Sequence record: EU078592
DNA: 42,925 nt
Strand: one strand, 5' to 3'
DNA from: Escherichia phage DE3
Below, one piece after another: positions 10,262 through 30,628 of this stretch (position 1 is the stretch's first letter; each line of letters opens with the position of its first letter). The notes beneath the pieces were generated by a model that was given only the letters and a program-made list of their open reading frames with translations, was not told the DNA's origin and searched no databases. A program made the position numbers and the translations under genes.

Positions 10262-10630
10262 TCAGGCGGCCTTGATAGTCATATCATCTGAATCAAATAT
10301 TCCTGATGTATCGATATCGGTAATTCTTATTCCTTCGCTACCATCCATTGGAGGCCATCCTTCCTGACCATTTCCATCATTCCAGTCGAACTCACACACA
10401 ACACCATATGCATTTAAGTCGCTTGAAATTGCTATAAGCAGAGCATGTTGCGCCAGCATGATTAATACAGCATTTAATACAGAGCCGTGTTTATTGAGTC
10501 GGTATTCAGAGTCTGACCAGAAATTATTAATCTGGTGAAGTTTTTCCTCTGTCATTACGTCATGGTCGATTTCAATTTCTATTGATGCTTTCCAGTCGTA
10601 ATCAATGATGTATTTTTTGATGTTTGACAT
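10262..10630 (-). CDS. ea10: Ea10 (122 aa)
   Basis: 122-aa ORF at expected position downstream of cIII. Confidence 0.85.
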   Translation of the reverse strand: MSNIKKYIIDYDWKASIEIEIDHDVMTEEKLHQINNFWSDSEYRLNKHGSVLNAVLIMLAQHALLIAISSDLNAYGVVCEFDWNDGNGQEGWPPMDGSEGIRITDIDTSGIFDSDDMTIKAA

Positions 10631-10812
10631 CTGTTCATATCCTCACAGATAAAAAATCGCCCTCACACTGGAGGGCAAAGAAGATTTCCAATAATCAGAA
10701 CAAGTCGGCTCCTGTTTAGTTACGAGCGACATTGCTCCGTGTATTCACTCGTTGGAATGAATACACAGTGCAGTGTTTATTCTGTTATTTATGCCAAAAA
10801 TAAAGGCCACTA

Positions 10813-11013
10813 TCAGGCAGCTTTGTTGTTCTGTTTACCAAGTTCTCTGGCAATCATTGCCGTCGTTCGTATTGCCCATTTATCGACATATTTCCCATCT
10901 TCCATTACAGGAAACATTTCTTCAGGCTTAACCATGCATTCCGATTGCAGCTTGCATCCATTGCATCGCTTGAATTGTCCACACCATTGATTTTTATCAA
11001 TAGTCGTAGTCAT
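10813..11013 (-). CDS. ral: Ral restriction-alleviation protein (66 aa)
   Basis: MTTTIDKNQWCGQFKRCNGCKLQSECMVKPEEMFPVMEDGKYVDKWAIRTTAMIARELGKQNNKAA. Confidence 0.88.
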   Translation of the reverse strand: MTTTIDKNQWCGQFKRCNGCKLQSECMVKPEEMFPVMEDGKYVDKWAIRTTAMIARELGKQNNKAA

Positions 11014-11091
11014 ACGGATAGTCCTGGTATTGTTCCATCACATCCTGAGGATGCTCTTCGAACTCTTCAAATTCTTCTTCCATATATCACC

Positions 11092-11391
11092 TCAAATAAG
11101 TGGTTTGCTGCCTAATTTAATTTTCTGGCGACCAACACAAGTCACACCCATTTCACTGCGTGGCTTGCTGTAGTAAATACGGTTCTGTTTACGCTCGACT
11201 TCTTCTGCCTTCTTGCAGCGAAGGCTTCCGAGTGATGCTGCTTTATCTGCTCTGACGCAACCAGAGAGCTTTAGCGCAATTTTTCGCGCCAGTGCTTCAT
11301 TACTGCGTCGCTCGGCAATAAGTTCTGCTCTGCGAGCTTTGTAGCGGCTTTTTGCCGTACCTTTGGATTCTTTCCAGACAATGGTTACCAT
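11092..11391 (-). CDS. N: N antiterminator, heterologous (phage 21-like), 99 aa with N-terminal arginine-rich motif
   Basis: MVTIVWKESKGTAKSRYKARRAELIAERRSN...; GGAG 7 nt upstream of this ATG; not the lambda N sequence. Confidence 0.85.
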   Translation of the reverse strand: MVTIVWKESKGTAKSRYKARRAELIAERRSNEALARKIALKLSGCVRADKAASLGSLRCKKAEEVERKQNRIYYSKPRSEMGVTCVGRQKIKLGSKPLI

Positions 11392-11501
11392 GATGGTCTC
11401 CTTTAAGTGGCTTTGGCGCATGACGCGTCGAGGTGCTTATCTTCTCGATCGCTGTCTTGTAGCTGCAATTCGCGCCATCCCCAAAACCACTCAAGTTCTG
11501 G

Positions 11502-11541
11502 TCTCAACGGTTAGGTTGAGAGTCCGTCGATGTTAAAGAGC
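11502..11541 (-). promoter_or_regulatory. nutL: nutL: boxA (GCTCTTTAACA, 11531-11541) and boxB hairpin (UCUCAAC-CUAACC-GUUGAGA, 11502-11521)
   Basis: Perfect 7-bp stem with 6-nt loop on the leftward transcript, boxA-like element 10 nt 5' of it. Confidence 0.75.
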
Positions 11542-11583
11542 CTGCCAATCTGTTCCGTTTGGCTTCCAGCGTCCTGCTGATGG

Positions 11584-11680
11584 CTTAAATTTAAGACTTC
11601 TTAATTTATTGGTCAAGTGCATTTTTGAAGAAAACTTAATTTTATGGGCGTGAATTTAGTTTGTCTTTGATTTTTAACGG
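11584..11680 (-). promoter_or_regulatory. OL/pL region of the heterologous immunity module; candidate pL -35 TTGACC (11611-11616) and -10 TAAATT (11588-11593) with operator-like palindrome between
   Basis: TTAAGACTTCTTAA at 11591-11604 and CTTAAATTTAAG at 11584-11595, read on minus strand. Confidence 0.55.
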
Positions 11681-11682
11681 GA

Positions 11683-11703
11683 AATAAAAAAGGGGCGAAA
11701 GCC
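11683..11703 (-). terminator. Intrinsic terminator immediately downstream of cI (minus strand)
   Basis: GGGGC-TTTC-GCCCC stem-loop followed by TTTTTTATTT on the minus strand. Confidence 0.7.
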
Positions 11704-11705
11704 CC

Positions 11706-12356
11706 TTAAGGAAGGTTTGCTAGCTTGGCATCAACGACAACGCCAATGATTTTACAGTTCCCATTGATTTCAATCATTGGGTATTGTGGATTGAGTGGTT
11801 TCAGGAATTTTCTACCGGCATCAATAACTAACTTTTTGAATGTCGCCTCGTTTTCTCCTTCAAGTTTGGCGACTACCAGCTTTCCATTACGTGGTTCGAC
11901 TTCTGGGTCGACGAGAATAATCATCCCCTCAGGAATACTCAGTCCTGCCGGGGCAGTCATTGAATCGCCTTTAACGTCGAGCCAAAAAGAGTCTTCAGAA
12001 CAATCTACCGTTGTGTCGTACCAGTTATCTATTGCACGCCTATGATATGGCTCTACAGCTTCCATCCAACATCCTGCGCTTACCCAACTAATTAGAGGAT
12101 ACGAACCTCTTGGATCATGCCTGCTGTGATAGGCAATGTTTGAAAGACTATCCTCTCCTTTCAACAGGTAATCAGGGGAGCACTGCAAAGCCTTGGCTAA
12201 GGCCAATAGGTTTTCGCCATTGGGCTCAGTTTCAGATCGCTCCCATTGGGAAATAGCAACATTAGACACGCCAACCATCTTGCCAAGGGCAGCCTGCCTA
12301 ATCTTGAGTTCTTTTCTGCGAGCGCGAATACGCTCACCCATCAGTTGTGTATTCAT
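11706..12356 (-). CDS. cI: CI repressor, heterologous (phage 21-like), 216 aa, HTH N-domain plus LexA/S24-like C-domain
   Basis: MNTQLMGERIRARRKELKIRQAALGKMVGVSNVAISQWERSETEPNGENLLALAKAL...GDSMTAPAG...; not lambda or 434 cI. Confidence 0.9.
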   Translation of the reverse strand: MNTQLMGERIRARRKELKIRQAALGKMVGVSNVAISQWERSETEPNGENLLALAKALQCSPDYLLKGEDSLSNIAYHSRHDPRGSYPLISWVSAGCWMEAVEPYHRRAIDNWYDTTVDCSEDSFWLDVKGDSMTAPAGLSIPEGMIILVDPEVEPRNGKLVVAKLEGENEATFKKLVIDAGRKFLKPLNPQYPMIEINGNCKIIGVVVDAKLANLP

Positions 12357-12436
12357 AGTTAAGACATCTTAAATAAACTTGACTTAAGATTCCTTTGGTG
12401 GATAATTTAAGTGTTCTTTAATTTCGGAGCGAGTCT
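12357..12436. promoter_or_regulatory. OR/pRM/pR region; pR -35 TTGACT (12379-12384), -10 GATAAT (12401-12406); operator-like palindrome TTAAGACATCTTAA (12359-12372)
   Basis: Divergent cI and cro ORFs separated by 80 bp; consensus-like sigma70 hexamers with 16-bp spacer. Confidence 0.7.
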
Positions 12437-12622
12437 ATGTACAAAAAAGATGTTATTGACCACTTCGGAACCCAGCGTGCTGTTGCTAAAGCACTAGGCA
12501 TTAGCGATGCAGCAGTCTCTCAGTGGAAAGAAGTTATCCCAGAGAAAGACGCCTATCGATTGGAAATCGTTACAGCTGGCGCCCTGAAGTATCAAGAAAG
12601 TGCTTACCGCCAAGCGGCATAA
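12437..12622 (+). CDS. cro: Cro, heterologous (phage 21-like), 61 aa
   Basis: MYKKDVIDHFGTQRAVAKALGISDAAVSQWKEVIPEKDAYRLEIVTAGALKYQESAYRQAA; HTH, not lambda Cro. Confidence 0.88.
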   Translation: MYKKDVIDHFGTQRAVAKALGISDAAVSQWKEVIPEKDAYRLEIVTAGALKYQESAYRQAA

Positions 12623-12628
12623 GCAAAT

Positions 12629-12669
12629 TGCTCTTTAACAGTTCTGGCCTTTCACCTCTAACCGGGTGA
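12629..12669 (+). promoter_or_regulatory. nutR: nutR: boxA (TGCTCTTTAACA, 12629-12640) and boxB hairpin (UCACCU-CUAACC-GGGUGA, 12652-12669)
   Basis: Same CUAACC loop as the nutL hairpin; stem differs. Confidence 0.7.
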
Positions 12670-12737
12670 GCAAACATCAGCGGCAAATCCATTGGGTGTG
12701 CCGCTATAACTCAATATCAATATAGGTAAATTAACAA

Positions 12738-13037
12738 ATGGCACAAGCAAGCTACAGCAAGCCAACACAGCGAGAAATTGATCGCGCTGAAACTGATTTA
12801 CTCATCAACCTGTCAACGCTTACCCAGCGCGGTCTGGCAAAGATGATTGGCTGTCATGAATCGAAGATAAGCAGAACGGACTGGAGATTTATTGCTTCGG
12901 TCTTGTGTGCTTTCGGAATGGCATCAGACATCAGTCCGATTAGCAGGGCTTTTAAGTATGCGCTTGATGGACTCACAAAGAAAAAACGCCCGGTGTGCAA
13001 GACCGAGCGTTCTGAACAAATCCAGATGGAGTTCTGA
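12738..13037 (+). CDS. cII: CII transcriptional activator, hybrid (heterologous N-terminal part, lambda-identical C-terminus)
   Basis: MAQASYSKPTQREIDRAETDLLINL...KKKRPVCKTERSEQIQMEF; only the C-terminal TERSEQIQMEF matches lambda CII as I recall it. Confidence 0.85.
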   Translation: MAQASYSKPTQREIDRAETDLLINLSTLTQRGLAKMIGCHESKISRTDWRFIASVLCAFGMASDISPISRAFKYALDGLTKKKRPVCKTERSEQIQMEF

Positions 13038-13059
13038 GGTCATTACTGGATCTATCAAC
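12983..13059 (-). ncRNA. oop: OOP antisense RNA (approximate; position inferred from lambda map)
   Basis: A-run at 12980-12985 (U-run on minus strand) preceded by GC-rich imperfect hairpin inside the cII 3' end. Confidence 0.4.
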
Positions 13060-13069
13060 AGGAGTCATT

Positions 13070-13969
13070 ATGACAAATACAGCAAAAATACTCAACTTCG
13101 GCAGAGGTAACTTTGCCGGACAGGAGCGTAATGTGGCAGATCTCGATGATGGTTACGCCAGACTATCAAATATGCTGCTTGAGGCTTATTCGGGCGCAGA
13201 TCTGACCAAGCGACAGTTTAAAGTGCTGCTTGCCATTCTGCGTAAAACCTATGGGTGGAATAAACCAATGGACAGAATCACCGATTCTCAACTTAGCGAG
13301 ATTACAAAGTTACCTGTCAAACGGTGCAATGAAGCCAAGTTAGAACTCGTCAGAATGAATATTATCAAGCAGCAAGGCGGCATGTTTGGACCAAATAAAA
13401 ACATCTCAGAATGGTGTATCCCTCAAAACGAGGGAAAATCCCCTAAAACGAGGGATAAAACATCCCTCAAATTGGGGGATTGCTATCCCTCAAAACAGGG
13501 GGACACAAAAGACACTATTACAAAAGAAAAAAGAAAAGATTATTCGTCAGAGAATTCTGGCGAATCCTCTGACCAGCCAGAAAACGACCTTTCTGTGGTG
13601 AAACCGGATGCTGCAATTCAGAGCGGCAGCAAGTGGGGGACAGCAGAAGACCTGACCGCCGCAGAGTGGATGTTTGACATGGTGAAGACTATCGCACCAT
13701 CAGCCAGAAAACCGAATTTTGCTGGGTGGGCTAACGATATCCGCCTGATGCGTGAACGTGACGGACGTAACCACCGCGACATGTGTGTGCTGTTCCGCTG
13801 GGCATGCCAGGACAACTTCTGGTCCGGTAACGTGCTGAGCCCGGCCAAACTCCGCGATAAGTGGACCCAACTCGAAATCAACCGTAACAAGCAACAGGCA
13901 GGCGTGACAGCCAGCAAACCAAAACTCGACCTGACAAACACAGACTGGATTTACGGGGTGGATCTATGA
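13070..13969 (+). CDS. O: Replication initiator O (299 aa)
   Basis: MTNTAKILNFGRGNFAGQERNVADLDDGYARLSNMLLEAYSGADLTKRQFKVLLAILRKTYGW... Confidence 0.96.
   Translation: MTNTAKILNFGRGNFAGQERNVADLDDGYARLSNMLLEAYSGADLTKRQFKVLLAILRKTYGWNKPMDRITDSQLSEITKLPVKRCNEAKLELVRMNIIKQQGGMFGPNKNISEWCIPQNEGKSPKTRDKTSLKLGDCYPSKQGDTKDTITKEKRKDYSSENSGESSDQPENDLSVVKPDAAIQSGSKWGTAEDLTAAEWMFDMVKTIAPSARKPNFAGWANDIRLMRERDGRNHRDMCVLFRWACQDNFWSGNVLSPAKLRDKWTQLEINRNKQQAGVTASKPKLDLTNTDWIYGVDL
13417..13545. repeat. ori: ori-lambda: four ~19-bp iterons (ATCCCTCAAAACGAGGGA-like) plus adjacent A/T-rich unwinding region, inside O
   Basis: Four direct repeats 13418-13504 followed by ACAAAAGACACTATTACAAAAGAAAAAAGAAAAGATTATT. 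Confidence 0.9.
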
Positions 13970-14667
13970 AAAACATCGCCGCACAGATGGTTAACTTTGA
14001 CCGTGAGCAGATGCGTCGGATCGCCAACAACATGCCGGAACAGTACGACGAAAAGCCGCAGGTACAGCAGGTAGCGCAGATCATCAACGGTGTGTTCAGC
14101 CAGTTACTGGCAACTTTCCCGGCGAGCCTGGCTAACCGTGACCAGAACGAAGTGAACGAAATCCGTCGCCAGTGGGTTCTGGCTTTTCGGGAAAACGGGA
14201 TCACCACGATGGAACAGGTTAACGCAGGAATGCGCGTAGCCCGTCGGCAGAATCGACCATTTCTGCCATCACCCGGGCAGTTTGTTGCATGGTGCCGGGA
14301 AGAAGCATCCGTTACCGCCGGACTGCCAAACGTCAGCGAGCTGGTTGATATGGTTTACGAGTATTGCCGGAAGCGAGGCCTGTATCCGGATGCGGAGTCT
14401 TATCCGTGGAAATCAAACGCGCACTACTGGCTGGTTACCAACCTGTATCAGAACATGCGGGCCAATGCGCTTACTGATGCGGAATTACGCCGTAAGGCCG
14501 CAGATGAGCTTGTCCATATGACTGCGAGAATTAACCGTGGTGAGGCGATCCCTGAACCAGTAAAACAACTTCCTGTCATGGGCGGTAGACCTCTAAATCG
14601 TGCACAGGCTCTGGCGAAGATCGCAGAAATCAAAGCTAAGTTCGGACTGAAAGGAGCAAGTGTATGA
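13966..14667 (+). CDS. P: Replication protein P (helicase loader), 233 aa
   Basis: [71 protein letters not shown]... Confidence 0.96.
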
Positions 14668-15467
14668 CGGGCAAAGAGGCAATTATTCATTACCTGGGGA
14701 CGCATAATAGCTTCTGTGCGCCGGACGTTGCCGCGCTAACAGGCGCAACAGTAACCAGCATAAATCAGGCCGCGGCTAAAATGGCACGGGCAGGTCTTCT
14801 GGTTATCGAAGGTAAGGTCTGGCGAACGGTGTATTACCGGTTTGCTACCAGGGAAGAACGGGAAGGAAAGATGAGCACGAACCTGATGAACAAACTGGAT
14901 ACGATTGGATTCGACAACAAAAAAGACCTGCTTATCTCGGTGGGCGATTTGGTTGATCGTGGTGCAGAGAACGTTGAATGCCTGGAATTAATCACATTCC
15001 CCTGGTTCAGAGCTGTACGTGGAAACCATGAGCAAATGATGATTGATGGCTTATCAGAGCGTGGAAACGTTAATCACTGGCTGCTTAATGGCGGTGGCTG
15101 GTTCTTTAATCTCGATTACGACAAAGAAATTCTGGCTAAAGCTCTTGCCCATAAAGCAGATGAACTTCCGTTAATCATCGAACTGGTGAGCAAAGATAAA
15201 AAATATGTTATCTGCCACGCCGATTATCCCTTTGACGAATACGAGTTTGGAAAGCCAGTTGATCATCAGCAGGTAATCTGGAACCGCGAACGAATCAGCA
15301 ACTCACAAAACGGGATCGTGAAAGAAATCAAAGGCGCGGACACGTTCATCTTTGGTCATACGCCAGCAGTGAAACCACTCAAGTTTGCCAACCAAATGTA
15401 TATCGATACCGGCGCAGTGTTCTGCGGAAACCTAACATTGATTCAGGTACAGGGAGAAGGCGCATGA
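14664..15467 (+). CDS. In-frame ren'-'ninI fusion created by nin5-type deletion (Ren residues 1-74 joined to lambda Ser/Thr phosphatase from ~residue 26)
   Basis: [30 protein letters not shown]...EGKMSTNL|[26 protein letters not shown]...GNHE...; junction ~14877-14886. Confidence 0.85.
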
Positions 15468-16087
15468 GACTCGAAAGCGTAGCTAAATTTCATTCGCCAA
15501 AAAGCCCGATGATGAGCGACTCACCACGGGCCACGGCTTCTGACTCTCTTTCCGGTACTGATGTGATGGCTGCTATGGGGATGGCGCAATCACAAGCCGG
15601 ATTCGGTATGGCTGCATTCTGCGGTAAGCACGAACTCAGCCAGAACGACAAACAAAAGGCTATCAACTATCTGATGCAATTTGCACACAAGGTATCGGGG
15701 AAATACCGTGGTGTGGCATATCTTGAAGGAAATACTAAGGCAAAGGTACTGCAAGTGCTCGCAACATTCGCTTATGCGGATTATTGCCGTAGTGCCGCGA
15801 CGCCGGGGGCAAGATGCAGAGATTGCCATGGTACAGGCCGTGCGGTTGATATTGCCAAAACAGAGCTGTGGGGGAGAGTTGTCGAGAAAGAGTGCGGAAG
15901 ATGCAAAGGCGTCGGCTATTCAAGGATGCCAGCAAGCGCAGCATATCGCGCTGTGACGATGCTAATCCCAAACCTTACCCAACCCACCTGGTCACGCACT
16001 GTTAAGCCGCTGTATGACGCTCTGGTGGTGCAATGCCACAAAGAAGAGTCAATCGCAGACAACATTTTGAATGCGGTCACACGTTAG
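15464..16087 (+). CDS. Q: Q late antiterminator (207 aa)
   Basis: [72 protein letters not shown]... Confidence 0.95.
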
Positions 16088-16129
16088 CAGCATGATTGCC
16101 ACGGATGGCAACATATTAACGGCATGATA

Positions 16130-16165
16130 TTGACTTATTGAATAAAATTGGGTAAATTTGACTCA
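16130..16165 (+). promoter_or_regulatory. Late promoter pR' with qut site (-35 TTGACT 16130-16135, -10 TAAATT 16153-16158)
   Basis: Consensus-like hexamers, 17-bp spacer, immediately downstream of Q. Confidence 0.85.
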
Positions 16166-16358
16166 ACGATGGGTTAATTCGCTCGTTGTGGTAGTGAGAT
16201 GAAAAGAGGCGGCGCTTACTACCGATTCCGCCTAGTTGGTCACTTCGACGTATCGTCTGGAACTCCAACCATCGCAGGCAGAGAGGTCTGCAAAATGCAA
16301 TCCCGAAACAGTTCGCAGGTAATAGTTAGAGCCTGCATAACGGTTTCGGGATTTTTTA
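16165..16358 (+). ncRNA. 6S late leader RNA (pR' to tR', ~194 nt)
   Basis: Span from pR' start to the tR' hairpin-plus-U-tract. Confidence 0.7.
16298..16358 (+). terminator. tR' intrinsic terminator
   Basis: AATCCCGAAAC ... GTTTCGGGATT stem followed by TTTTTTAT. Confidence 0.85.
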
Positions 16359-16763
16359 TATCTGCACAACAGGTAAGAGCATTGAGTCGATAATCGTGAA
16401 GAGTCGGCGAGCCTGGTTAGCCAGTGCTCTTTCCGTTGTGCTGAATTAAGCGAATACCGGAAGCAGAACCGGATCACCAAATGCGTACAGGCGTCATCGC
16501 CGCCCAGCAACAGCACAACCCAAACTGAGCCGTAGCCACTGTCTGTCCTGAATTCATTAGTAATAGTTACGCTGCGGCCTTTTACACATGACCTTCGTGA
16601 AAGCGGGTGGCAGGAGGTCGCGCTAACAACCTCCTGCCGTTTTGCCCGTGCATATCGGTCACGAACAAATCTGATTACTAAACACAGTAGCCTGGATTTG
16701 TTCTATCAGTAATCGACCTTATTCCTAATTAAATAGAGCAAATCCCCTTATTGGGGGTAAGAC

Positions 16764-17087
16764 ATGAAGATGCCAGAAAAACATGACCTGTTGGCCGCCA
16801 TTCTCGCGGCAAAGGAACAAGGCATCGGGGCAATCCTTGCGTTTGCAATGGCGTACCTTCGCGGCAGATATAATGGCGGTGCGTTTACAAAAACAGTAAT
16901 CGACGCAACGATGTGCGCCATTATCGCCTGGTTCATTCGTGACCTTCTCGACTTCGCCGGACTAAGTAGCAATCTCGCTTATATAACGAGCGTGTTTATC
17001 GGCTACATCGGTACTGACTCGATTGGTTCGCTTATCAAACGCTTCGCTGCTAAAAAAGCCGGAGTAGAAGATGGTAGAAATCAATAA
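16764..17087 (+). CDS. S: Holin/antiholin S (S107 from ATG 16764; S105 from ATG 16770); intact, no amber codon
   Basis: [107 protein letters not shown]. Confidence 0.96.
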
Positions 17088-17547
17088 TCAACGTAAGGCG
17101 TTCCTCGATATGCTGGCGTGGTCGGAGGGAACTGATAACGGACGTCAGAAAACCAGAAATCATGGTTATGACGTCATTGTAGGCGGAGAGCTATTCACTG
17201 ATTACTCCGATCACCCTCGCAAACTTGTCACGCTAAACCCAAAACTCAAATCAACAGGCGCCGGACGCTACCAGCTTCTTTCCCGTTGGTGGGATGCCTA
17301 CCGCAAGCAGCTTGGCCTGAAAGACTTCTCTCCGAAAAGTCAGGACGCTGTGGCATTGCAGCAGATTAAGGAGCGTGGCGCTTTACCTATGATTGATCGT
17401 GGTGATATCCGTCAGGCAATCGACCGTTGCAGCAATATCTGGGCTTCACTGCCGGGCGCTGGTTATGGTCAGTTCGAGCATAAGGCTGACAGCCTGATTG
17501 CAAAATTCAAAGAAGCGGGCGGAACGGTCAGAGAGATTGATGTATGA
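17071..17547 (+). CDS. R: Endolysin R (lytic transglycosylase), 158 aa
   Basis: [53 protein letters not shown]... Confidence 0.96.
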
Positions 17548-18005
17548 GCAGAGTCACCGCGATTATCTCCGCTCTGGTTATCTGCATCATCGTCTGCCTG
17601 TCATGGGCTGTTAATCATTACCGTGATAACGCCATTACCTACAAAGCCCAGCGCGACAAAAATGCCAGAGAACTGAAGCTGGCGAACGCGGCAATTACTG
17701 ACATGCAGATGCGTCAGCGTGATGTTGCTGCGCTCGATGCAAAATACACGAAGGAGTTAGCTGATGCTAAAGCTGAAAATGATGCTCTGCGTGATGATGT
17801 TGCCGCTGGTCGTCGTCGGTTGCACATCAAAGCAGTCTGTCAGTCAGTGCGTGAAGCCACCACCGCCTCCGGCGTGGATAATGCAGCCTCCCCCCGACTG
17901 GCAGACACCGCTGAACGGGATTATTTCACCCTCAGAGAGAGGCTGATCACTATGCAAAAACAACTGGAAGGAACCCAGAAGTATATTAATGAGCAGTGCA
18001 GATAG
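17544..18005 (+). CDS. Rz: Spanin inner-membrane subunit Rz (153 aa)
   Basis: [80 protein letters not shown]... Confidence 0.95.
17764..17946 (+). CDS. Rz1: Spanin outer-membrane lipoprotein Rz1 (60 aa), fully embedded in Rz in the +1 frame
   Basis: [60 protein letters not shown]; lipobox LVVVGC and Pro-rich tail. Confidence 0.9.
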
Positions 18006-18036
18006 AGCTGACCATATCGATGGGCAACTCATGCAA

Positions 18037-18330
18037 TTATTTTGAGCAATACACACGCGCTTCCAGCGGAGTATAAATGCCTAAAGTAATAAAACCGAGC
18101 AATCCATTTACGAATGTTTGCTGGGTTTCTGTTTTAACAACATTTTCTGCGCCGCCACAAATTTTAGCTGCATCGACAGTTTTCTTCTGCCCAATTCCAG
18201 AAACGAAGAAATGATGGGTGATGGTTTCCTTTGGTGCTACTGCTGCCGGTTTGTTTTGAACAGTAAACGTCTGTTGAGCACATCCTGTAATAAGCAGGGC
18301 CAGCGCAGTAGCGAGTAGCATTTTTTTCAT
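18037..18330 (-). CDS. bor: Bor lipoprotein (serum-resistance moron), 97 aa
   Basis: MKKMLLATALALLITGCAQQTFTVQNKPAAVAPKETITHHFFVSGIGQKKTVDAAKICGG...; signal peptide plus lipobox. Confidence 0.93.
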   Translation of the reverse strand: MKKMLLATALALLITGCAQQTFTVQNKPAAVAPKETITHHFFVSGIGQKKTVDAAKICGGAENVVKTETQQTFVNGLLGFITLGIYTPLEARVYCSK

Positions 18331-18619
18331 GGTGTTATTCCCGATGCTTTTTGAAGTTCGCAGAATCGTATGTGTAGAAAATTAAACAAACCCTAAACAA
18401 TGAGTTGAAATTTCATATTGTTAATATTTATTAATGTATGTCAGGTGCGATGAATCGTCATTGTATTCCCGGATTAACTATGTCCACAGCCCTGACGGGG
18501 AACTTCTCTGCGGGAGTGTCCGGGAATAATTAAAACGATGCACACAGGGTTTAGCGCGTACACGTATTGCATTATGCCAACGCCCCGGTGCTGACACGGA
18601 AGAAACCGGACGTTATGAT

Positions 18620-19153
18620 TTAGCGTGGAAAGATTTGTGTAGTGTTCTGAATGCTCTCAGTAAATAGTAATGAATTATCAAAGGTATAGTAATATCTTTT
18701 ATGTTCATGGATATTTGTAACCCATCGGAAAACTCCTGCTTTAGCAAGATTTTCCCTGTATTGCTGAAATGTGATTTCTCTTGATTTCAACCTATCATAG
18801 GACGTTTCTATAAGATGCGTGTTTCTTGAGAATTTAACATTTACAACCTTTTTAAGTCCTTTTATTAACACGGTGTTATCGTTTTCTAACACGATGTGAA
18901 TATTATCTGTGGCTAGATAGTAAATATAATGTGAGACGTTGTGACGTTTTAGTTCAGAATAAAACAATTCACAGTCTAAATCTTTTCGCACTTGATCGAA
19001 TATTTCTTTAAAAATGGCAACCTGAGCCATTGGTAAAACCTTCCATGTGATACGAGGGCGCGTAGTTTGCATTATCGTTTTTATCGTTTCAATCTGGTCT
19101 GACCTCCTTGTGTTTTGTTGATGATTTATGTCAAATATTAGGAATGTTTTCAC
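18620..19153 (-). CDS. Hypothetical protein lambdap78 (YbcV-like, putative envelope protein), 177 aa
   Basis: 177-aa ORF in A/T-rich segment at expected map position. Confidence 0.75.
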
Positions 19154-19315
19154 TTAATAGTATTGGTTGCGTAACAAAGTGCGGTCCTGCTGGCATTCTG
19201 GAGGGAAATACAACCGACAGATGTATGTAAGGCCAACGTGCTCAAATCTTCATACAGAAAGATTTGAAGTAATATTTTAACCGCTAGATGAAGAGCAAGC
19301 GCATGGAGCGACAAA

Positions 19316-19522
19316 ATGAATAAAGAACAATCTGCTGATGATCCCTCCGTGGATCTGATTCGTGTAAAAAATATGCTTAATAGCACCATTTCTATGAGTT
19401 ACCCTGATGTTGTAATTGCATGTATAGAACATAAGGTGTCTCTGGAAGCATTCAGAGCAATTGAGGCAGCGTTGGTGAAGCACGATAATAATATGAAGGA
19501 TTATTCCCTGGTGGTTGACTGA
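19316..19522 (+). CDS. Hypothetical protein lambdap79 (YbcW-like), 68 aa
   Basis: 68-aa ORF at expected map position. Confidence 0.65.
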
Positions 19523-19686
19523 TCACCATAACTGCTAATCATTCAAACTATTTAGTCTGTGACAGAGCCAACACGCAGTCTGTCACTGTCAGGAAAGTGG
19601 TAAAACTGCAACTCAATTACTGCAATGCCCTCGTAATTAAGTGAATTTACAATATCGTCCTGTTCGGAGGGAAGAACGCGGGATGT

Positions 19687-19881
19687 TCATTCTTCATCAC
19701 TTTTAATTGATGTATATGCTCTCTTTTCTGACGTTAGTCTCCGACGGCAGGCTTCAATGACCCAGGCTGAGAAATTCCCGGACCCTTTTTGCTCAAGAGC
19801 GATGTTAATTTGTTCAATCATTTGGTTAGGAAAGCGGATGTTGCGGGTTGTTGTTCTGCGGGTTCTGTTCTTCGTTGACAT
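19687..19881 (-). CDS. Candidate small ribbon-helix-helix (Arc/Mnt/CopG-like) DNA-binding protein, 64 aa (hypothetical)
   Basis: MSTKNRTRRTTTRNIRFPNQMIEQINIALEQKGSGNFSAWVIEACRRRL...: basic N-tail, beta-strand, helix, G-x-S turn, helix pattern; hand-checked reverse-strand translation. Confidence 0.4.
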   Translation of the reverse strand: MSTKNRTRRTTTRNIRFPNQMIEQINIALEQKGSGNFSAWVIEACRRRLTSEKRAYTSIKSDEE

Positions 19882-20059
19882 GAGGTTGCCCCGTATTCAG
19901 TGTCGCTGATTTGTATTGTCTGAAGTTGTTTTTACGTTAAGTTGATGCAGATCAATTAATACGATACCTGCGTCATAATTGATTATTTGACGTGGTTTGA
20001 TGGCCTCCACGCACGTTGTGATATGTAGATGATAATCATTATCACTTTACGGGTCCTTT

Positions 20060-20270
20060 CCGGTGATCCGACAGGTTACGGGGCGGCGACCTCGCGGGTT
20101 TTCGCTATTTATGAAAATTTTCCGGTTTAAGGCGTTTCCGTTCTTCTTCGTCATAACTTAATGTTTTTATTTAAAATACCCTCTGAAAAGAAAGGAAACG
20201 ACAGGTGCTGAAAGCGAGCTTTTTGGCCTCTGTCGTTTCCTTTCTCTGTTTTTGTCCGTGGAATGAACAA
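20060..20270. other. cos: cos region (cosQ/cosN/cosB); virion left end GGGCGGCGACCT begins ~20081, right end ...ACAGGTTACG ends ~20080
   Basis: Exact lambda terminal sequences abut: ...CGACAGGTTACG|GGGCGGCGACCTCGCGGGTTTTCGCTATTTATGAAAATTTTCCGG. Confidence 0.93.
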
Positions 20271-20815: not shown

Positions 20816-24496
<3,681 letters not shown>

Positions 24497-24516
<20 letters not shown>

Positions 24517-25816
24517 TCTCCCGCATATTGCCAGCATGGCCTTTAATGAGCCGCTGATGCTTGAACCCGCCTATGCGCGGGTTTTCTTTTGTGCGCTTGC
24601 AGGCCAGCTTGGGATCAGCAGCCTGACGGATGCGGTGTCCGGCGACAGCCTGACTGCCCAGGAGGCACTCGCGACGCTGGCATTATCCGGTGATGATGAC
24701 GGACCACGACAGGCCCGCAGTTATCAGGTCATGAACGGCATCGCCGTGCTGCCGGTGTCCGGCACGCTGGTCAGCCGGACGCGGGCGCTGCAGCCGTACT
24801 CGGGGATGACCGGTTACAACGGCATTATCGCCCGTCTGCAACAGGCTGCCAGCGATCCGATGGTGGACGGCATTCTGCTCGATATGGACACGCCCGGCGG
24901 GATGGTGGCGGGGGCATTTGACTGCGCTGACATCATCGCCCGTGTGCGTGACATAAAACCGGTATGGGCGCTTGCCAACGACATGAACTGCAGTGCAGGT
25001 CAGTTGCTTGCCAGTGCCGCCTCCCGGCGTCTGGTCACGCAGACCGCCCGGACAGGCTCCATCGGCGTCATGATGGCTCACAGTAATTACGGTGCTGCGC
25101 TGGAGAAACAGGGTGTGGAAATCACGCTGATTTACAGCGGCAGCCATAAGGTGGATGGCAACCCCTACAGCCATCTTCCGGATGACGTCCGGGAGACACT
25201 GCAGTCCCGGATGGACGCAACCCGCCAGATGTTTGCGCAGAAGGTGTCGGCATATACCGGCCTGTCCGTGCAGGTTGTGCTGGATACCGAGGCTGCAGTG
25301 TACAGCGGTCAGGAGGCCATTGATGCCGGACTGGCTGATGAACTTGTTAACAGCACCGATGCGATCACCGTCATGCGTGATGCACTGGATGCACGTAAAT
25401 CCCGTCTCTCAGGAGGGCGAATGACCAAAGAGACTCAATCAACAACTGTTTCAGCCACTGCTTCGCAGGCTGACGTTACTGACGTGGTGCCAGCGACGGA
25501 GGGCGAGAACGCCAGCGCGGCGCAGCCGGACGTGAACGCGCAGATCACCGCAGCGGTTGCGGCAGAAAACAGCCGCATTATGGGGATACTCAACTGTGAG
25601 GAGGCTCACGGACGCGAAGAACAGGCACGCGTGCTGGCAGAAACCCCCGGTATGACCGTGAAAACGGCCCGCCGCATTCTGGCCGCAGCACCACAGAGTG
25701 CACAGGCGCGCAGTGACACTGCGCTGGATCGTCTGATGCAGGGGGCACCGGCACCGCTGGCTGCAGGTAACCCGGCATCTGATGCCGTTAACGATTTGCT
25801 GAACACACCAGTGTAA
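24497..25816 (+). CDS. C: Capsid assembly protease C (439 aa), GTG start
   Basis: GTG at 24497 preceded by AGGAGGAG; MTAELRNLPHIASMAFNEPLMLEP...; ORF track extends upstream only because frame is open. Confidence 0.9.
25211..25816 (+). CDS. nu3: Scaffolding protein Nu3 (internal in-frame start within C)
   Basis: In-frame ATG at 25211 (MDATRQMFAQKVSAYTGL...), same stop as C. Confidence 0.75.
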   Translation: MDATRQMFAQKVSAYTGLSVQVVLDTEAAVYSGQEAIDAGLADELVNSTDAITVMRDALDARKSRLSGGRMTKETQSTTVSATASQADVTDVVPATEGENASAAQPDVNAQITAAVAAENSRIMGILNCEEAHGREEQARVLAETPGMTVKTARRILAAAPQSAQARSDTALDRLMQGAPAPLAAGNPASDAVNDLLNTPV

Positions 25817-25825
25817 GGGATGTTT

Positions 25826-26158
25826 ATGACGAGCAAAGAAACCTTTACCCATTACCAGCCGCAGGGCAACAGTGACCCGGCTCATACCGCAACCGCGCCC
25901 GGCGGATTGAGTGCGAAAGCGCCTGCAATGACCCCGCTGATGCTGGACACCTCCAGCCGTAAGCTGGTTGCGTGGGATGGCACCACCGACGGTGCTGCCG
26001 TTGGCATTCTTGCGGTTGCTGCTGACCAGACCAGCACCACGCTGACGTTCTACAAGTCCGGCACGTTCCGTTATGAGGATGTGCTCTGGCCGGAGGCTGC
26101 CAGCGACGAGACGAAAAAACGGACCGCGTTTGCCGGAACGGCAATCAGCATCGTTTAA
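25826..26158 (+). CDS. D: Head decoration protein D (110 aa)
   Basis: [79 protein letters not shown]... Confidence 0.95.
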
Positions 26159-26213
26159 CTTTACCCTTCATCACTAAAGGCCGCCTGTGCGGCTTTTTTT
26201 ACGGGATTTTTTT

Positions 26214-27239
26214 ATGTCGATGTACACAACCGCCCAACTGCTGGCGGCAAATGAGCAGAAATTTAAGTTTGATCCGCTGTTTCTGCGTCTCTTTTTCCGT
26301 GAGAGCTATCCCTTCACCACGGAGAAAGTCTATCTCTCACAAATTCCGGGACTGGTAAACATGGCGCTGTACGTTTCGCCGATTGTTTCCGGTGAGGTTA
26401 TCCGTTCCCGTGGCGGCTCCACCTCTGAATTTACGCCGGGATATGTCAAGCCGAAGCATGAAGTGAATCCGCAGATGACCCTGCGTCGCCTGCCGGATGA
26501 AGATCCGCAGAATCTGGCGGACCCGGCTTACCGCCGCCGTCGCATCATCATGCAGAACATGCGTGACGAAGAGCTGGCCATTGCTCAGGTCGAAGAGATG
26601 CAGGCAGTTTCTGCCGTGCTTAAGGGCAAATACACCATGACCGGTGAAGCCTTCGATCCGGTTGAGGTGGATATGGGCCGCAGTGAGGAGAATAACATCA
26701 CGCAGTCCGGCGGCACGGAGTGGAGCAAGCGTGACAAGTCCACGTATGACCCGACCGACGATATCGAAGCCTACGCGCTGAACGCCAGCGGTGTGGTGAA
26801 TATCATCGTGTTCGATCCGAAAGGCTGGGCGCTGTTCCGTTCCTTCAAAGCCGTCAAGGAGAAGCTGGATACCCGTCGTGGCTCTAATTCCGAGCTGGAG
26901 ACAGCGGTGAAAGACCTGGGCAAAGCGGTGTCCTATAAGGGGATGTATGGCGATGTGGCCATCGTCGTGTATTCCGGACAGTACGTGGAAAACGGCGTCA
27001 AAAAGAACTTCCTGCCGGACAACACGATGGTGCTGGGGAACACTCAGGCACGCGGTCTGCGCACCTATGGCTGCATTCAGGATGCGGACGCACAGCGCGA
27101 AGGCATTAACGCCTCTGCCCGTTACCCGAAAAACTGGGTGACCACCGGCGATCCGGCGCGTGAGTTCACCATGATTCAGTCAGCACCGCTGATGCTGCTG
27201 GCTGACCCTGATGAGTTCGTGTCCGTACAACTGGCGTAA
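26214..27239 (+). CDS. E: Major capsid protein E (341 aa)
   Basis: MSMYTTAQLLAANEQKFKFDPLFLRLFFRESYPFTTEKVYLSQIPGLVNMALYVSPIVSGEVIRSRGG... Confidence 0.96.
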   Translation: MSMYTTAQLLAANEQKFKFDPLFLRLFFRESYPFTTEKVYLSQIPGLVNMALYVSPIVSGEVIRSRGGSTSEFTPGYVKPKHEVNPQMTLRRLPDEDPQNLADPAYRRRRIIMQNMRDEELAIAQVEEMQAVSAVLKGKYTMTGEAFDPVEVDMGRSEENNITQSGGTEWSKRDKSTYDPTDDIEAYALNASGVVNIIVFDPKGWALFRSFKAVKEKLDTRRGSNSELETAVKDLGKAVSYKGMYGDVAIVVYSGQYVENGVKKNFLPDNTMVLGNTQARGLRTYGCIQDADAQREGINASARYPKNWVTTGDPAREFTMIQSAPLMLLADPDEFVSVQLA

Positions 27240-27280
27240 TCATGGCCCTTCGGGGCCATTGTTTCTCTGTGGAGGAGTCC

Positions 27281-27679
27281 ATGACGAAAGATGAACTGAT
27301 TGCCCGTCTCCGCTCGCTGGGTGAACAACTGAACCGTGATGTCAGCCTGACGGGGACGAAAGAAGAACTGGCGCTCCGTGTGGCAGAGCTGAAAGAGGAG
27401 CTTGATGACACGGATGAAACTGCCGGTCAGGACACCCCTCTCAGCCGGGAAAATGTGCTGACCGGACATGAAAATGAGGTGGGATCAGCGCAGCCGGATA
27501 CCGTGATTCTGGATACGTCTGAACTGGTCACGGTCGTGGCACTGGTGAAGCTGCATACTGATGCACTTCACGCCACGCGGGATGAACCTGTGGCATTTGT
27601 GCTGCCGGGAACGGCGTTTCGTGTCTCTGCCGGTGTGGCAGCCGAAATGACAGAGCGCGGCCTGGCCAGAATGCAATAA
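27281..27679 (+). CDS. FI: DNA packaging protein FI (132 aa)
   Basis: MTKDELIARLRSLGEQLNRDVSLTGTKEELALRVAELKEELDDTDETAGQDTPLSRENV... Confidence 0.93.
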   Translation: MTKDELIARLRSLGEQLNRDVSLTGTKEELALRVAELKEELDDTDETAGQDTPLSRENVLTGHENEVGSAQPDTVILDTSELVTVVALVKLHTDALHATRDEPVAFVLPGTAFRVSAGVAAEMTERGLARMQ

Positions 27680-27690
27680 CGGGAGGCGCT

Positions 27691-28044
27691 GTGGCTGATT
27701 TCGATAACCTGTTCGATGCTGCCATTGCCCGCGCCGATGAAACGATACGCGGGTACATGGGAACGTCAGCCACCATTACATCCGGTGAGCAGTCAGGTGC
27801 GGTGATACGTGGTGTTTTTGATGACCCTGAAAATATCAGCTATGCCGGACAGGGCGTGCGCGTTGAAGGCTCCAGCCCGTCCCTGTTTGTCCGGACTGAT
27901 GAGGTGCGGCAGCTGCGGCGTGGAGACACGCTGACCATCGGTGAGGAAAATTTCTGGGTAGATCGGGTTTCGCCGGATGATGGCGGAAGTTGTCATCTCT
28001 GGCTTGGACGGGGCGTACCGCCTGCCGTTAACCGTCGCCGCTGA
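27691..28044 (+). CDS. FII: Head-tail connector protein FII (117 aa)
   Basis: 117-aa ORF at expected position. Confidence 0.93.
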   Translation: MADFDNLFDAAIARADETIRGYMGTSATITSGEQSGAVIRGVFDDPENISYAGQGVRVEGSSPSLFVRTDEVRQLRRGDTLTIGEENFWVDRVSPDDGGSCHLWLGRGVPPAVNRRR

Positions 28045-28055
28045 AAGGGGGATGT

Positions 28056-28634
28056 ATGGCCATAAAAGGTCTTGAGCAGGCCGTTGAAAACCTCAGCCGT
28101 ATCAGCAAAACGGCGGTGCCTGGTGCCGCCGCAATGGCCATTAACCGCGTTGCTTCATCCGCGATATCGCAGTCGGCGTCACAGGTTGCCCGTGAGACAA
28201 AGGTACGCCGGAAACTGGTAAAGGAAAGGGCCAGGCTGAAAAGGGCCACGGTCAAAAATCCGCAGGCCAGAATCAAAGTTAACCGGGGGGATTTGCCCGT
28301 AATCAAGCTGGGTAATGCGCGGGTTGTCCTTTCGCGCCGCAGGCGTCGTAAAAAGGGGCAGCGTTCATCCCTGAAAGGTGGCGGCAGCGTGCTTGTGGTG
28401 GGTAACCGTCGTATTCCCGGCGCGTTTATTCAGCAACTGAAAAATGGCCGGTGGCATGTCATGCAGCGTGTGGCTGGGAAAAACCGTTACCCCATTGATG
28501 TGGTGAAAATCCCGATGGCGGTGCCGCTGACCACGGCGTTTAAACAAAATATTGAGCGGATACGGCGTGAACGTCTTCCGAAAGAGCTGGGCTATGCGCT
28601 GCAGCATCAACTGAGGATGGTAATAAAGCGATGA
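28056..28634 (+). CDS. Z: Tail completion protein Z (192 aa)
   Basis: 192-aa ORF at expected position. Confidence 0.93.
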   Translation: MAIKGLEQAVENLSRISKTAVPGAAAMAINRVASSAISQSASQVARETKVRRKLVKERARLKRATVKNPQARIKVNRGDLPVIKLGNARVVLSRRRRRKKGQRSSLKGGGSVLVVGNRRIPGAFIQQLKNGRWHVMQRVAGKNRYPIDVVKIPMAVPLTTAFKQNIERIRRERLPKELGYALQHQLRMVIKR

Positions 28635-29026
28635 AACATACTGAACTCCGTGCAGCCGTACTGGATGCACTGGAGAAGCATGACACCGGGGCGACGTTTT
28701 TTGATGGTCGCCCCGCTGTTTTTGATGAGGCGGATTTTCCGGCAGTTGCCGTTTATCTCACCGGCGCTGAATACACGGGCGAAGAGCTGGACAGCGATAC
28801 CTGGCAGGCGGAGCTGCATATCGAAGTTTTCCTGCCTGCTCAGGTGCCGGATTCAGAGCTGGATGCGTGGATGGAGTCCCGGATTTATCCGGTGATGAGC
28901 GATATCCCGGCACTGTCAGATTTGATCACCAGTATGGTGGCCAGCGGCTATGACTACCGGCGCGACGATGATGCGGGCTTGTGGAGTTCAGCCGATCTGA
29001 CTTATGTCATTACCTATGAAATGTGA
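28631..29026 (+). CDS. U: Tail terminator protein U (131 aa)
   Basis: 131-aa ORF overlapping Z stop. Confidence 0.93.
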
Positions 29027-29033
29027 GGACGCT

Positions 29034-29774
29034 ATGCCTGTACCAAATCCTACAATGCCGGTGAAAGGTGCCGGGACCACCCTGTGGGTTTATAAGGGGA
29101 GCGGTGACCCTTACGCGAATCCGCTTTCAGACGTTGACTGGTCGCGTCTGGCAAAAGTTAAAGACCTGACGCCCGGCGAACTGACCGCTGAGTCCTATGA
29201 CGACAGCTATCTCGATGATGAAGATGCAGACTGGACTGCGACCGGGCAGGGGCAGAAATCTGCCGGAGATACCAGCTTCACGCTGGCGTGGATGCCCGGA
29301 GAGCAGGGGCAGCAGGCGCTGCTGGCGTGGTTTAATGAAGGCGATACCCGTGCCTATAAAATCCGCTTCCCGAACGGCACGGTCGATGTGTTCCGTGGCT
29401 GGGTCAGCAGTATCGGTAAGGCGGTGACGGCGAAGGAAGTGATCACCCGCACGGTGAAAGTCACCAATGTGGGACGTCCGTCGATGGCAGAAGATCGCAG
29501 CACGGTAACAGCGGCAACCGGCATGACCGTGACGCCTGCCAGCACCTCGGTGGTGAAAGGGCAGAGCACCACGCTGACCGTGGCCTTCCAGCCGGAGGGC
29601 GTAACCGACAAGAGCTTTCGTGCGGTGTCTGCGGATAAAACAAAAGCCACCGTGTCGGTCAGTGGTATGACCATCACCGTGAACGGCGTTGCTGCAGGCA
29701 AGGTCAACATTCCGGTTGTATCCGGTAATGGTGAGTTTGCTGCGGTTGCAGAAATTACCGTCACCGCCAGTTAA
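29034..29774 (+). CDS. V: Major tail tube protein V (246 aa)
   Basis: [67 protein letters not shown]... Confidence 0.95.
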
Positions 29775-29789
29775 TCCGGAGAGTCAGCG

Positions 29790-30212
29790 ATGTTCCTGAA
29801 AACCGAATCATTTGAACATAACGGTGTGACCGTCACGCTTTCTGAACTGTCAGCCCTGCAGCGCATTGAGCATCTCGCCCTGATGAAACGGCAGGCAGAA
29901 CAGGCGGAGTCAGACAGCAACCGGAAGTTTACTGTGGAAGACGCCATCAGAACCGGCGCGTTTCTGGTGGCGATGTCCCTGTGGCATAACCATCCGCAGA
30001 AGACGCAGATGCCGTCCATGAATGAAGCCGTTAAACAGATTGAGCAGGAAGTGCTTACCACCTGGCCCACGGAGGCAATTTCTCATGCTGAAAACGTGGT
30101 GTACCGGCTGTCTGGTATGTATGAGTTTGTGGTGAATAATGCCCCTGAACAGACAGAGGACGCCGGGCCCGCAGAGCCTGTTTCTGCGGGAAAGTGTTCG
30201 ACGGTGAGCTGA
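29790..30212 (+). CDS. G: Tail assembly chaperone G (140 aa)
   Basis: MFLKTESFEHNGVTVTLSELSALQRIEHLALMKRQAEQAESDSNRKFTVEDAIRTGAFLVAMSLW... Confidence 0.95.
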   Translation: MFLKTESFEHNGVTVTLSELSALQRIEHLALMKRQAEQAESDSNRKFTVEDAIRTGAFLVAMSLWHNHPQKTQMPSMNEAVKQIEQEVLTTWPTEAISHAENVVYRLSGMYEFVVNNAPEQTEDAGPAEPVSAGKCSTVS

Positions 30213-30628
30213 GTTTTGCCCTGAAACTGGCGCGTGAGATGGGGCGACCCGACTGGCGTGCCATGCTTGCCGGGATGTCATCCACGGAGTATGCCGACTG
30301 GCACCGCTTTTACAGTACCCATTATTTTCATGATGTTCTGCTGGATATGCACTTTTCCGGGCTGACGTACACCGTGCTCAGCCTGTTTTTCAGCGATCCG
30401 GATATGCATCCGCTGGATTTCAGTCTGCTGAACCGGCGCGAGGCTGACGAAGAGCCTGAAGATGATGTGCTGATGCAGAAAGCGGCAGGGCTTGCCGGAG
30501 GTGTCCGCTTTGGCCCGGACGGGAATGAAGTTATCCCCGCTTCCCCGGATGTGGCGGACATGACGGAGGATGACGTAATGCTGATGACAGTATCAGAAGG
30601 GATCGCAGGAGGAGTCCGGTATGGCTGA
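29790..30628 (+). CDS. T: Tail assembly chaperone G-T fusion made by programmed -1 ribosomal frameshift at G GGA AAG (30188-30194)
   Basis: Slippery heptamer GGGAAAG in G frame; downstream -1 frame ORF (30194..30628) open to T stop. Confidence 0.88.

Follow-up and report, generated by a model that had tools for sequence, protein, structure and literature searches.

When the 42,925-bp stretch of DNA analyzed here (the window) was read from its letters alone, an earlier note singled out positions 11014–12950 as an immunity module resembling that of phage 21, set between lambda-like flanks, with junctions between ral and N and inside cII. The locus raises the questions of which phage supplied this DNA, where it was joined to lambda, and what immunity it would confer on a lysogen.

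The DE3 prophage and its block of phage 21 DNA

The window is almost certainly the DE3 prophage of E. coli BL21(DE3), and the flagged region its imm21 substitution, namely phage 21 DNA recombined into lambda. We found 0 mismatches between the window and BL21(DE3) over the 26,950 bases compared, with window position 1 corresponding to position 748396 of NC_012971.2. In megablast searches, the flagged region was 100% identical to BL21(DE3), C41/C43(DE3), Rosetta2(DE3), and other DE3 strains. The RefSeq annotation of the identical BL21(DE3) locus places lacI, a lacZ fragment, and the T7 RNA polymerase gene inside int. Taken together with the lambda layout and the junction sequences, this annotation gives the full complement of DE3 features: lacI–lacUV5–T7 gene 1 in lambda int, nin5, the b-region (EcoRI-B) deletion, imm21, and integration at attB. 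Further marks of engineering are BamHI linkers around the int insert, the EcoRI bounds of the b-region deletion, and knocked-out restriction sites. DE3 is a derivative of a lambda vector, lambda D69.

Comparison of the window with lambda (blastn, NC_001416) yielded its overall layout. Positions 1–254 correspond to lambda 27724–27977 (the att core and the end of int) and are followed by the foreign insert at 255–4696 (lacI, the lacZ fragment, and T7 RNA polymerase in RefSeq). Lambda 27971–34381 then occupies 4697–11108, and lambda homology restarts with 38591–40501 at 12972–14885. The nin5 deletion junction lies at 14876–14885, and lambda 43298–48502 and 1–21231 follow at 14876–20080 and 20081–41311, respectively. 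Lambda 21232–26103 is deleted at a junction at 41306–41311, and lambda 26104–27723 closes the window (41306–42925). We also considered whether there was further phage 21 DNA around Rz/bor (17544–18387), a stretch with a 94% blast match to phage 21; this candidate was rejected, because 45 of its 49 informative sites are lambda-type. An Rfam scan of 9500–14000 in E-value mode returned the lambda cIII thermometer, which lies outside the region, and two chance snoRNA matches and nothing else; Rfam has no family for nut or oop elements.

The 1863-bp block at 11109–12971, in which blastn detected no lambda homology, stands in for 4209 bp of lambda (34382–38590) that contain sieB, N, nutL, pL/oL, rexB, rexA, cI, oR, cro, nutR, and cII codons 1–77. 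Against the phage 21 genome (OL657228), positions 11093–12971 are identical at 1879 of 1879 sites, and the non-lambda pattern is therefore not a matter of chance. The 10 further diagnostic positions up to 13417 are all 21-type; in 11014–11092, lambda and phage 21 have the same sequence. More broadly, 10500–13500 is 100% identical to the sequenced Lambda imm21 (OM418625) and 99.9% identical to phage 21. Thus, the alignment that the earlier note had proposed as a check bears out its phage 21-like module: lambda identity across N–cI–cro is absent and phage 21 identity is complete. The block it delimited is real, but it began about 80–95 bp too far to the left and ended 21 bp short of 12971. This imm21 region is fully explained and was already known (Feiss et al., 2022, PMC9119081; Hayes et al., 2012, PMC3349717).

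Such modules are also found outside the laboratory: 253 of 5426 complete E. coli genomes contain 80% or more of the flagged region, with wild isolates at 98.7–99.9% identity, and it is also seen in phages such as mEp235, HK629, and phiv205-1. The window could on this count be a naturally occurring lambdoid prophage from a wild E. coli with a 21-like immunity module, a reading to which we attach practically no weight in the face of the lacI–lacUV5–T7 gene 1 insert, the b-region and nin5 deletions, the knocked-out restriction sites, and the base-for-base agreement with BL21(DE3).

Regulators and sites of the immunity region

The open reading frames give the gene order as ral, N, and cI on the minus strand and cro, cII, and O (13070–13969) on the plus strand. 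Ral (10813–11013, minus strand; Pfam Ral E = 1.6e-48) is 100% identical to lambda Ral, as expected from its description in the earlier note as lambda-like. The note had also held that N, cI, and Cro are not the lambda proteins, and their identities to the lambda counterparts are indeed just 34%, 34%, and 28%.

The cI repressor of phage 21 (11706–12356, minus strand; 216 aa) combines an N-terminal HTH_3 domain with a Peptidase_S24 autocleavage domain (Pfam E = 6.4e-17 and 1.2e-30, respectively). It is 93.5% identical to P22 c2; its nearest solved structures are those of the P22 c2 N-terminal domain (PDB 1ADR and 2R1J), which align from residue 1, and the HTH region (c2 residues 16–53) is the same in the two proteins. 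Similarly, the 61-aa Cro (12437–12622, plus strand; Pfam P22_Cro E = 5.7e-28; PDB 1RZS, P22 Cro) is identical to P22 Cro at 60/61 residues (98.4%). Scanning with the 18-bp P22 consensus ATTTAAGNNNNCTTAAAT, complemented by alignment to P22 OL, recovered six P22-type operator sites, each matching at least 10 of the 14 specified consensus positions and clustered at oL and oR. The predicted sites of oL are OL1 (11589–11606), OL2 (11624–11641), and OL3 (11654–11671), and those of oR are OR3 (12357–12374), OR2 (12382–12399), and OR1 (12405–12422); the 18-mers of OL1 and OR1 are identical to their P22 namesakes. A promoter scan placed pL (TTGACC-17-TAAATT) at 11616–11588 on the minus strand and pR (TTGACT-16-GATAAT) at 12379–12406 on the plus strand, and alignment to the annotated P22 pRM puts the pRM start slightly upstream, by a few bases, of the cI start codon (ATG at 12356). 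The cI–cro intergenic region as a whole (12357–12436) is identical to the P22 OR region at 76 of 80 positions. The pairing of HTH and Peptidase_S24 domains with three P22-consensus sites each at oL and oR points to an S24 lambdoid repressor of P22 c2 specificity; the 21 and P22 repressors are said, from work attributed to Poteete and colleagues in 1980, to recognize the same operators.

The antiterminator N of phage 21 (11092–11391, minus strand; 99 aa) starts at an ATG at 11391 preceded by a ribosome-binding site, AAGGAG, as read from the sequence. While its match to the Pfam N_peptide family is weak, its residues 8–29 agree at every position with the N peptide of phage 21 that was solved with its boxB RNA (PDB 1NYB, chain A). 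Sequence and folding identified two nut sites. In nutL (11502–11541, minus strand), boxA GCUCUUUA lies at 11534–11541 and the boxB hairpin CUCAACCUAACCGUUGAG at 11502–11521; in nutR (12630–12669, plus strand), boxA GCUCUUUA lies at 12630–12637 and the boxB hairpin UCACCUCUAACCGGGUGA at 12652–12669. These assignments agree with the annotation on the identical phage 21 sequence, and both folded boxB elements display a CUAACC hexaloop. The region thus has the phage 21 arginine-rich motif in N together with matching CUAACC boxB hairpins.

The close relationship of cI, Cro, and the oR region to those of P22 would also suit a lambda–P22 hybrid (lambda immP22) in place of imm21. We consider this exceedingly improbable: DNA identity to P22 immC is about 84% (83.6%) from boxA-L to boxA-R (11527–12640), with none elsewhere in the block, as against 100% for phage 21; N is just 28% identical to P22 gp24 and bears the RNA-binding motif of phage 21; the identity of cII to P22 c1 is 24%; and the boxB hairpins are unlike those of P22. 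No likeness to either lambda or P22 is seen in the N protein, the boxB hairpins, or the greater part of cII. The imm21 segment carried by DE3 is, thus, itself a natural mosaic.

The exchange points and the origin of cII

Across 7128–14887, the genome of wild phage 21 already agrees with the window at about 98.5% identity. On this comparison, the points at which homology to lambda ends and begins again are thus natural boundaries present in wild phage 21 and not the crossovers of the hybrid. To bracket the latter, each site in the window at which lambda and phage 21 differ was classed as lambda-type or 21-type. To the left, about 110 sites of the window in the shared homology are lambda-type, of which the last is 10751; 21-type sites begin at 11093. 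The left exchange accordingly falls in the 341 bp of 10752–11092, in which lambda and phage 21 are the same and which contain ral. The junction between ral and N that had been proposed is a possible position, one that cannot be told from others within this interval.

On the right, the window is 21-type at 9 positions in 12977–13001, in the cII/oop overlap and including a 3-bp insertion, and again at 13417. It is lambda-type at 24 sites from 13549 through 14315. The last 21-type allele, at 13417, corresponds to C>T at lambda 39033; this silent change (TGC>TGT) in O lies one base to the left of iteron 1 on the plus strand. The right exchange of the DE3 lineage is thus bracketed to 13418–13548, the part of O with the four ori iterons and the A+T-rich region, in which lambda and phage 21 do not differ. 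This right limit is set by the single SNP at 13417; were it an independent mutation, the interval would be 13002–13548, which still lies outside the lambda-nonhomologous part of cII. By these diagnostic sites, the phage 21 segment spans at least 2325 bp (11093–13417) and at most 2797 bp (10752–13548).

These limits bear directly on cII (12738–13037, plus strand; 99 aa; Pfam Phage_CII E = 2.1e-36), which the earlier note had read as a chimaera with an internal junction. The gene is 40% identical to lambda cII overall. Its last ~21 codons are lambda-like, with lambda homology resuming at 12972 (cII codon ~79) and the final TERSEQIQMEF identical to that of lambda CII, all of which is what would be seen if the right junction of the hybrid lay inside cII and the cross had made a lambda/21 chimaera. 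That origin is nevertheless highly unlikely, and comparison with the phage 21 genome refutes it. The cII of wild phage 21 is exactly the same, down to the 21-specific changes in its lambda-like 3′ end; 9/9 lambda/21 diagnostic positions in 12977–13001 are 21-type, with the 3-bp insertion among them; and the 21-type allele at 13417 sits 380 bp past cII. Further, the cII/oop overlap of lambda imm21 was reported to be phage 21 sequence (Hayes et al., 2012, PMC3349717). With the right exchange mapping beyond it, in O/ori, cII is by the sequence an intact, native phage 21 gene and not a laboratory chimaera.

Two regulatory elements are associated with this gene. A predicted pRE site for CII binding, TTGC-N6-TTGC, can be read inside the cII 5′ end (12747–12760, minus strand), as in lambda pRE. 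The oop antisense RNA unit (12983–13095, minus strand), delineated by promoter and terminator scans, overlaps the cII 3′ end, with pO at 13095–13067 and its terminator at 13013–12983 (fold z = −3.37), both on the minus strand; it is lambda-like with 21-specific changes.

Both the cII/oop changes and 39033 C>T have been described in lambda imm21 (Hayes et al., 2012, PMC3349717), and the genomes of phage 21 and lambda imm21 revealed extra 21 DNA beyond the immunity region (Feiss et al., 2022, PMC9119081). The sequenced Lambda imm21 (OM418625) is 100% identical to the window over 6738–13548; however, it has the 21 allele at all 24 O/P sites in 13549–14315, where DE3 is lambda-type. The 21 segment of the DE3 lineage is accordingly the shorter of the two and stops over the ori iterons; in this respect, the stock of lambda imm21cI that Hayes et al. 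(2012, PMC3349717) sequenced looks like DE3. On balance, we favor the view that the DE3 segment is shorter than that of the reference lambda imm21 stock, with the right exchange in 131 bp over the ori iterons, and that at least two lambda imm21 lineages with differing right junctions are present in laboratories. The shorter segment probably stems from a later cross, perhaps the one joining imm21 to nin5, and, more speculatively, the iterons and the A+T-rich region could be a preferred site of exchange.

Immunity, exclusion, and likeness to known systems

Homologous recombination in the lambda-like flanks that are natural to phage 21 almost certainly replaced the lambda immunity region with the 21 segment, bringing in imm21 as a self-contained lambdoid switch. 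The established biology of the three phages, lambda, 21, and P22, allows its binding specificities and phenotypes to be outlined as follows. Dimers of cI21 on the tripartite oL and oR would shut pL and pR, while cI21 would keep up its own synthesis from pRM; RecA-stimulated autocleavage via the S24 domain should make induction possible. Cro21, acting on the same operators as cI21, would favor lytic growth. N21 bound to the 21 boxB hairpins of nutL and nutR, with Nus factors at boxA, is expected to antiterminate the pL and pR transcripts, and CII21 to activate pRE via TTGC-N6-TTGC. Since the pRE site has the TTGC repeat of lambda, CII21 should, in the hybrid, work at lambda pI and paQ as well. 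The module would thereby set the immunity specificity of phage 21, rendering the lysogen immune to imm21 phages. This immunity probably extends to P22 immC, as the HTH and operators are unchanged; it would be limited to imm21 and P22 immC-type phages, leaving the lysogen sensitive to imm-lambda and imm434 phages.

The earlier note had also remarked on the absence of rexA, rexB, and sieB. Consistent with this, tblastn of the whole window with RexA, RexB, and SieB of lambda and SieB of P22 recovered no homologue (best E = 0.11). Neither rexA/rexB downstream of cI nor sieB between ral and N was found. An intrinsic terminator (AAGGGGCUUUCGCCCCUU then UUUUAUUU; 11690–11707, minus strand; fold −12.1 kcal/mol, z = −2.98), identified by scan, directly follows the cI stop, with nothing co-transcribed downstream of cI, and the gap between ral and N is only 78 bp; this is, therefore, a prophage without RexA, RexB, and SieB. 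In the absence of these genes, the prophage cannot encode Rex or SieB exclusion, and the step from the missing rexAB to a DE3 lysogen that would lack Rex exclusion is sound.

For the heavily used BL21(DE3), these results matter as bookkeeping: its lysogens would have phage 21 (P22 immC-type) immunity and not that of lambda, and no RexAB/SieB abortive-infection functions are encoded. The often-quoted vendor genotype ‘ind1 sam7’ is, separately, at odds with the sequence. For genome scanning, the locus illustrates that a break in lambda homology, here a natural mosaic boundary, is not necessarily the point at which a hybrid was joined by recombination.

Among known systems, lambda has the same order and logic as the window, running from N, nutL, pL/oL, cI, oR, cro, and nutR to cII and oop, and shares with it boxA, the pRE TTGC-N6-TTGC, and the S24 autocleavage domain of cI. 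It differs in that the window proteins are just 28–40% identical to its own and the 18-bp operators are of another sequence; further, the immunity region of the window, missing rexA, rexB, and sieB, is 2346 bp shorter. P22 immC is closer in its repressor (93.5%) and Cro (98.4%), with the HTH, OR1, and OL1 unchanged, yet its DNA is only 84% identical, its gene 24, nut sites, and c1 are unrelated to the N, boxB, and cII of the window, and the window has no sieB. Each nut site, operator, and terminator annotated in phage 21 (OL657228), as well as its pRE, has one counterpart in the window; the two differ outside 10752–13548, where the window is lambda-like at about 130 diagnostic sites in the shared homology (~110 to the left and 24 to the right). 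The lambda imm21 hybrids are likewise without rexAB or sieB and have the same gene set as DE3, namely N21, cI21, cro21, and cII21.

Restriction sites, point differences and the vendor genotype

The lacI–lacUV5–T7 gene 1 insert in int is bordered by two BamHI sites (GGATCC, 249-254 and 4697-4702), and an EcoRI site (GAATTC, about 41306-41311) lies at the junction of the b-region deletion. Comparison with lambda further revealed a C>A change at window position 25588 (lambda 5509), which falls within the BamHI site at lambda 5505, and a pair of changes inside Q, A>T and G>T at 15719 and 15721, which falls within the HindIII site at lambda 44141. These changes in the BamHI and HindIII sites are presumably deliberate knock-outs of vector sites. 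Four additional changes are clustered at 18008-18166, from the end of Rz to bor (lambda 46430-46588); this cluster is not of the phage 21 type.

The S holin ORF (16764-17087, + strand) is identical to wild-type lambda S, and the Sam7 amber mutation is thus absent. Further, the repressor gene (11706-12356, − strand) is that of phage 21, which rules out the presence of 'ind1', an allele of lambda cI. Judged from the sequence, the vendor genotype quoted as 'ind1 sam7 nin5' (PMC3149613) therefore does not match DE3.

The nin5 fusion and the cIII RNA thermometer

The nin5 deletion, through which ~2.8 kb of lambda DNA (~40502-43297) was lost, is flanked by two copies of the 10-bp repeat CACGAACCTG, with the junction at 14876-14885. 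It creates an in-frame ORF of 267 aa (14664-15467, + strand), in which Ren residues 1-74 are fused to the Ser/Thr phosphatase NinI from its residue 29 onward; the RefSeq annotation at this locus covers only the phosphatase portion. In the lambda-derived left arm, an Rfam match to the cIII RNA thermometer (Lambda_thermo, RF01804; 88.5 bits) was recovered at 10144-10202 on the − strand, immediately upstream of cIII and extending into it.

The imm21 repressor and junctions in related phages

GenBank presents cI as a 190-aa protein starting at Met27 in both phage 21 (OL657228, 34255-34827) and the lambda imm21 reference stock (OM418625, 34968-35540). This annotation looks too short: for the 216-aa form (window 11706-12356), the alignment to the known structure of the P22 c2 N-terminal domain begins at residue 1, and the 190-aa version would be without the first helices of the HTH domain.

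According to its annotation, the deposited genome of phage DN1 (MF374379.1) has a 'right shoulder' made up of genes from DE3, with a fragment of imm21 joined to a moaA gene that is partly deleted, which suggests that BL21(DE3) cultures have given rise to DE3-derived recombinant phages.

Across the C-terminal half of O and in P, OM418625 (36811-37577) carries the phage 21 allele at all 24 of the 24 sites that distinguish lambda from phage 21, whereas DE3 is lambda-type across the same sites (window 13549-14315). Thus, the right junctions differ between these two imm21 lineages.
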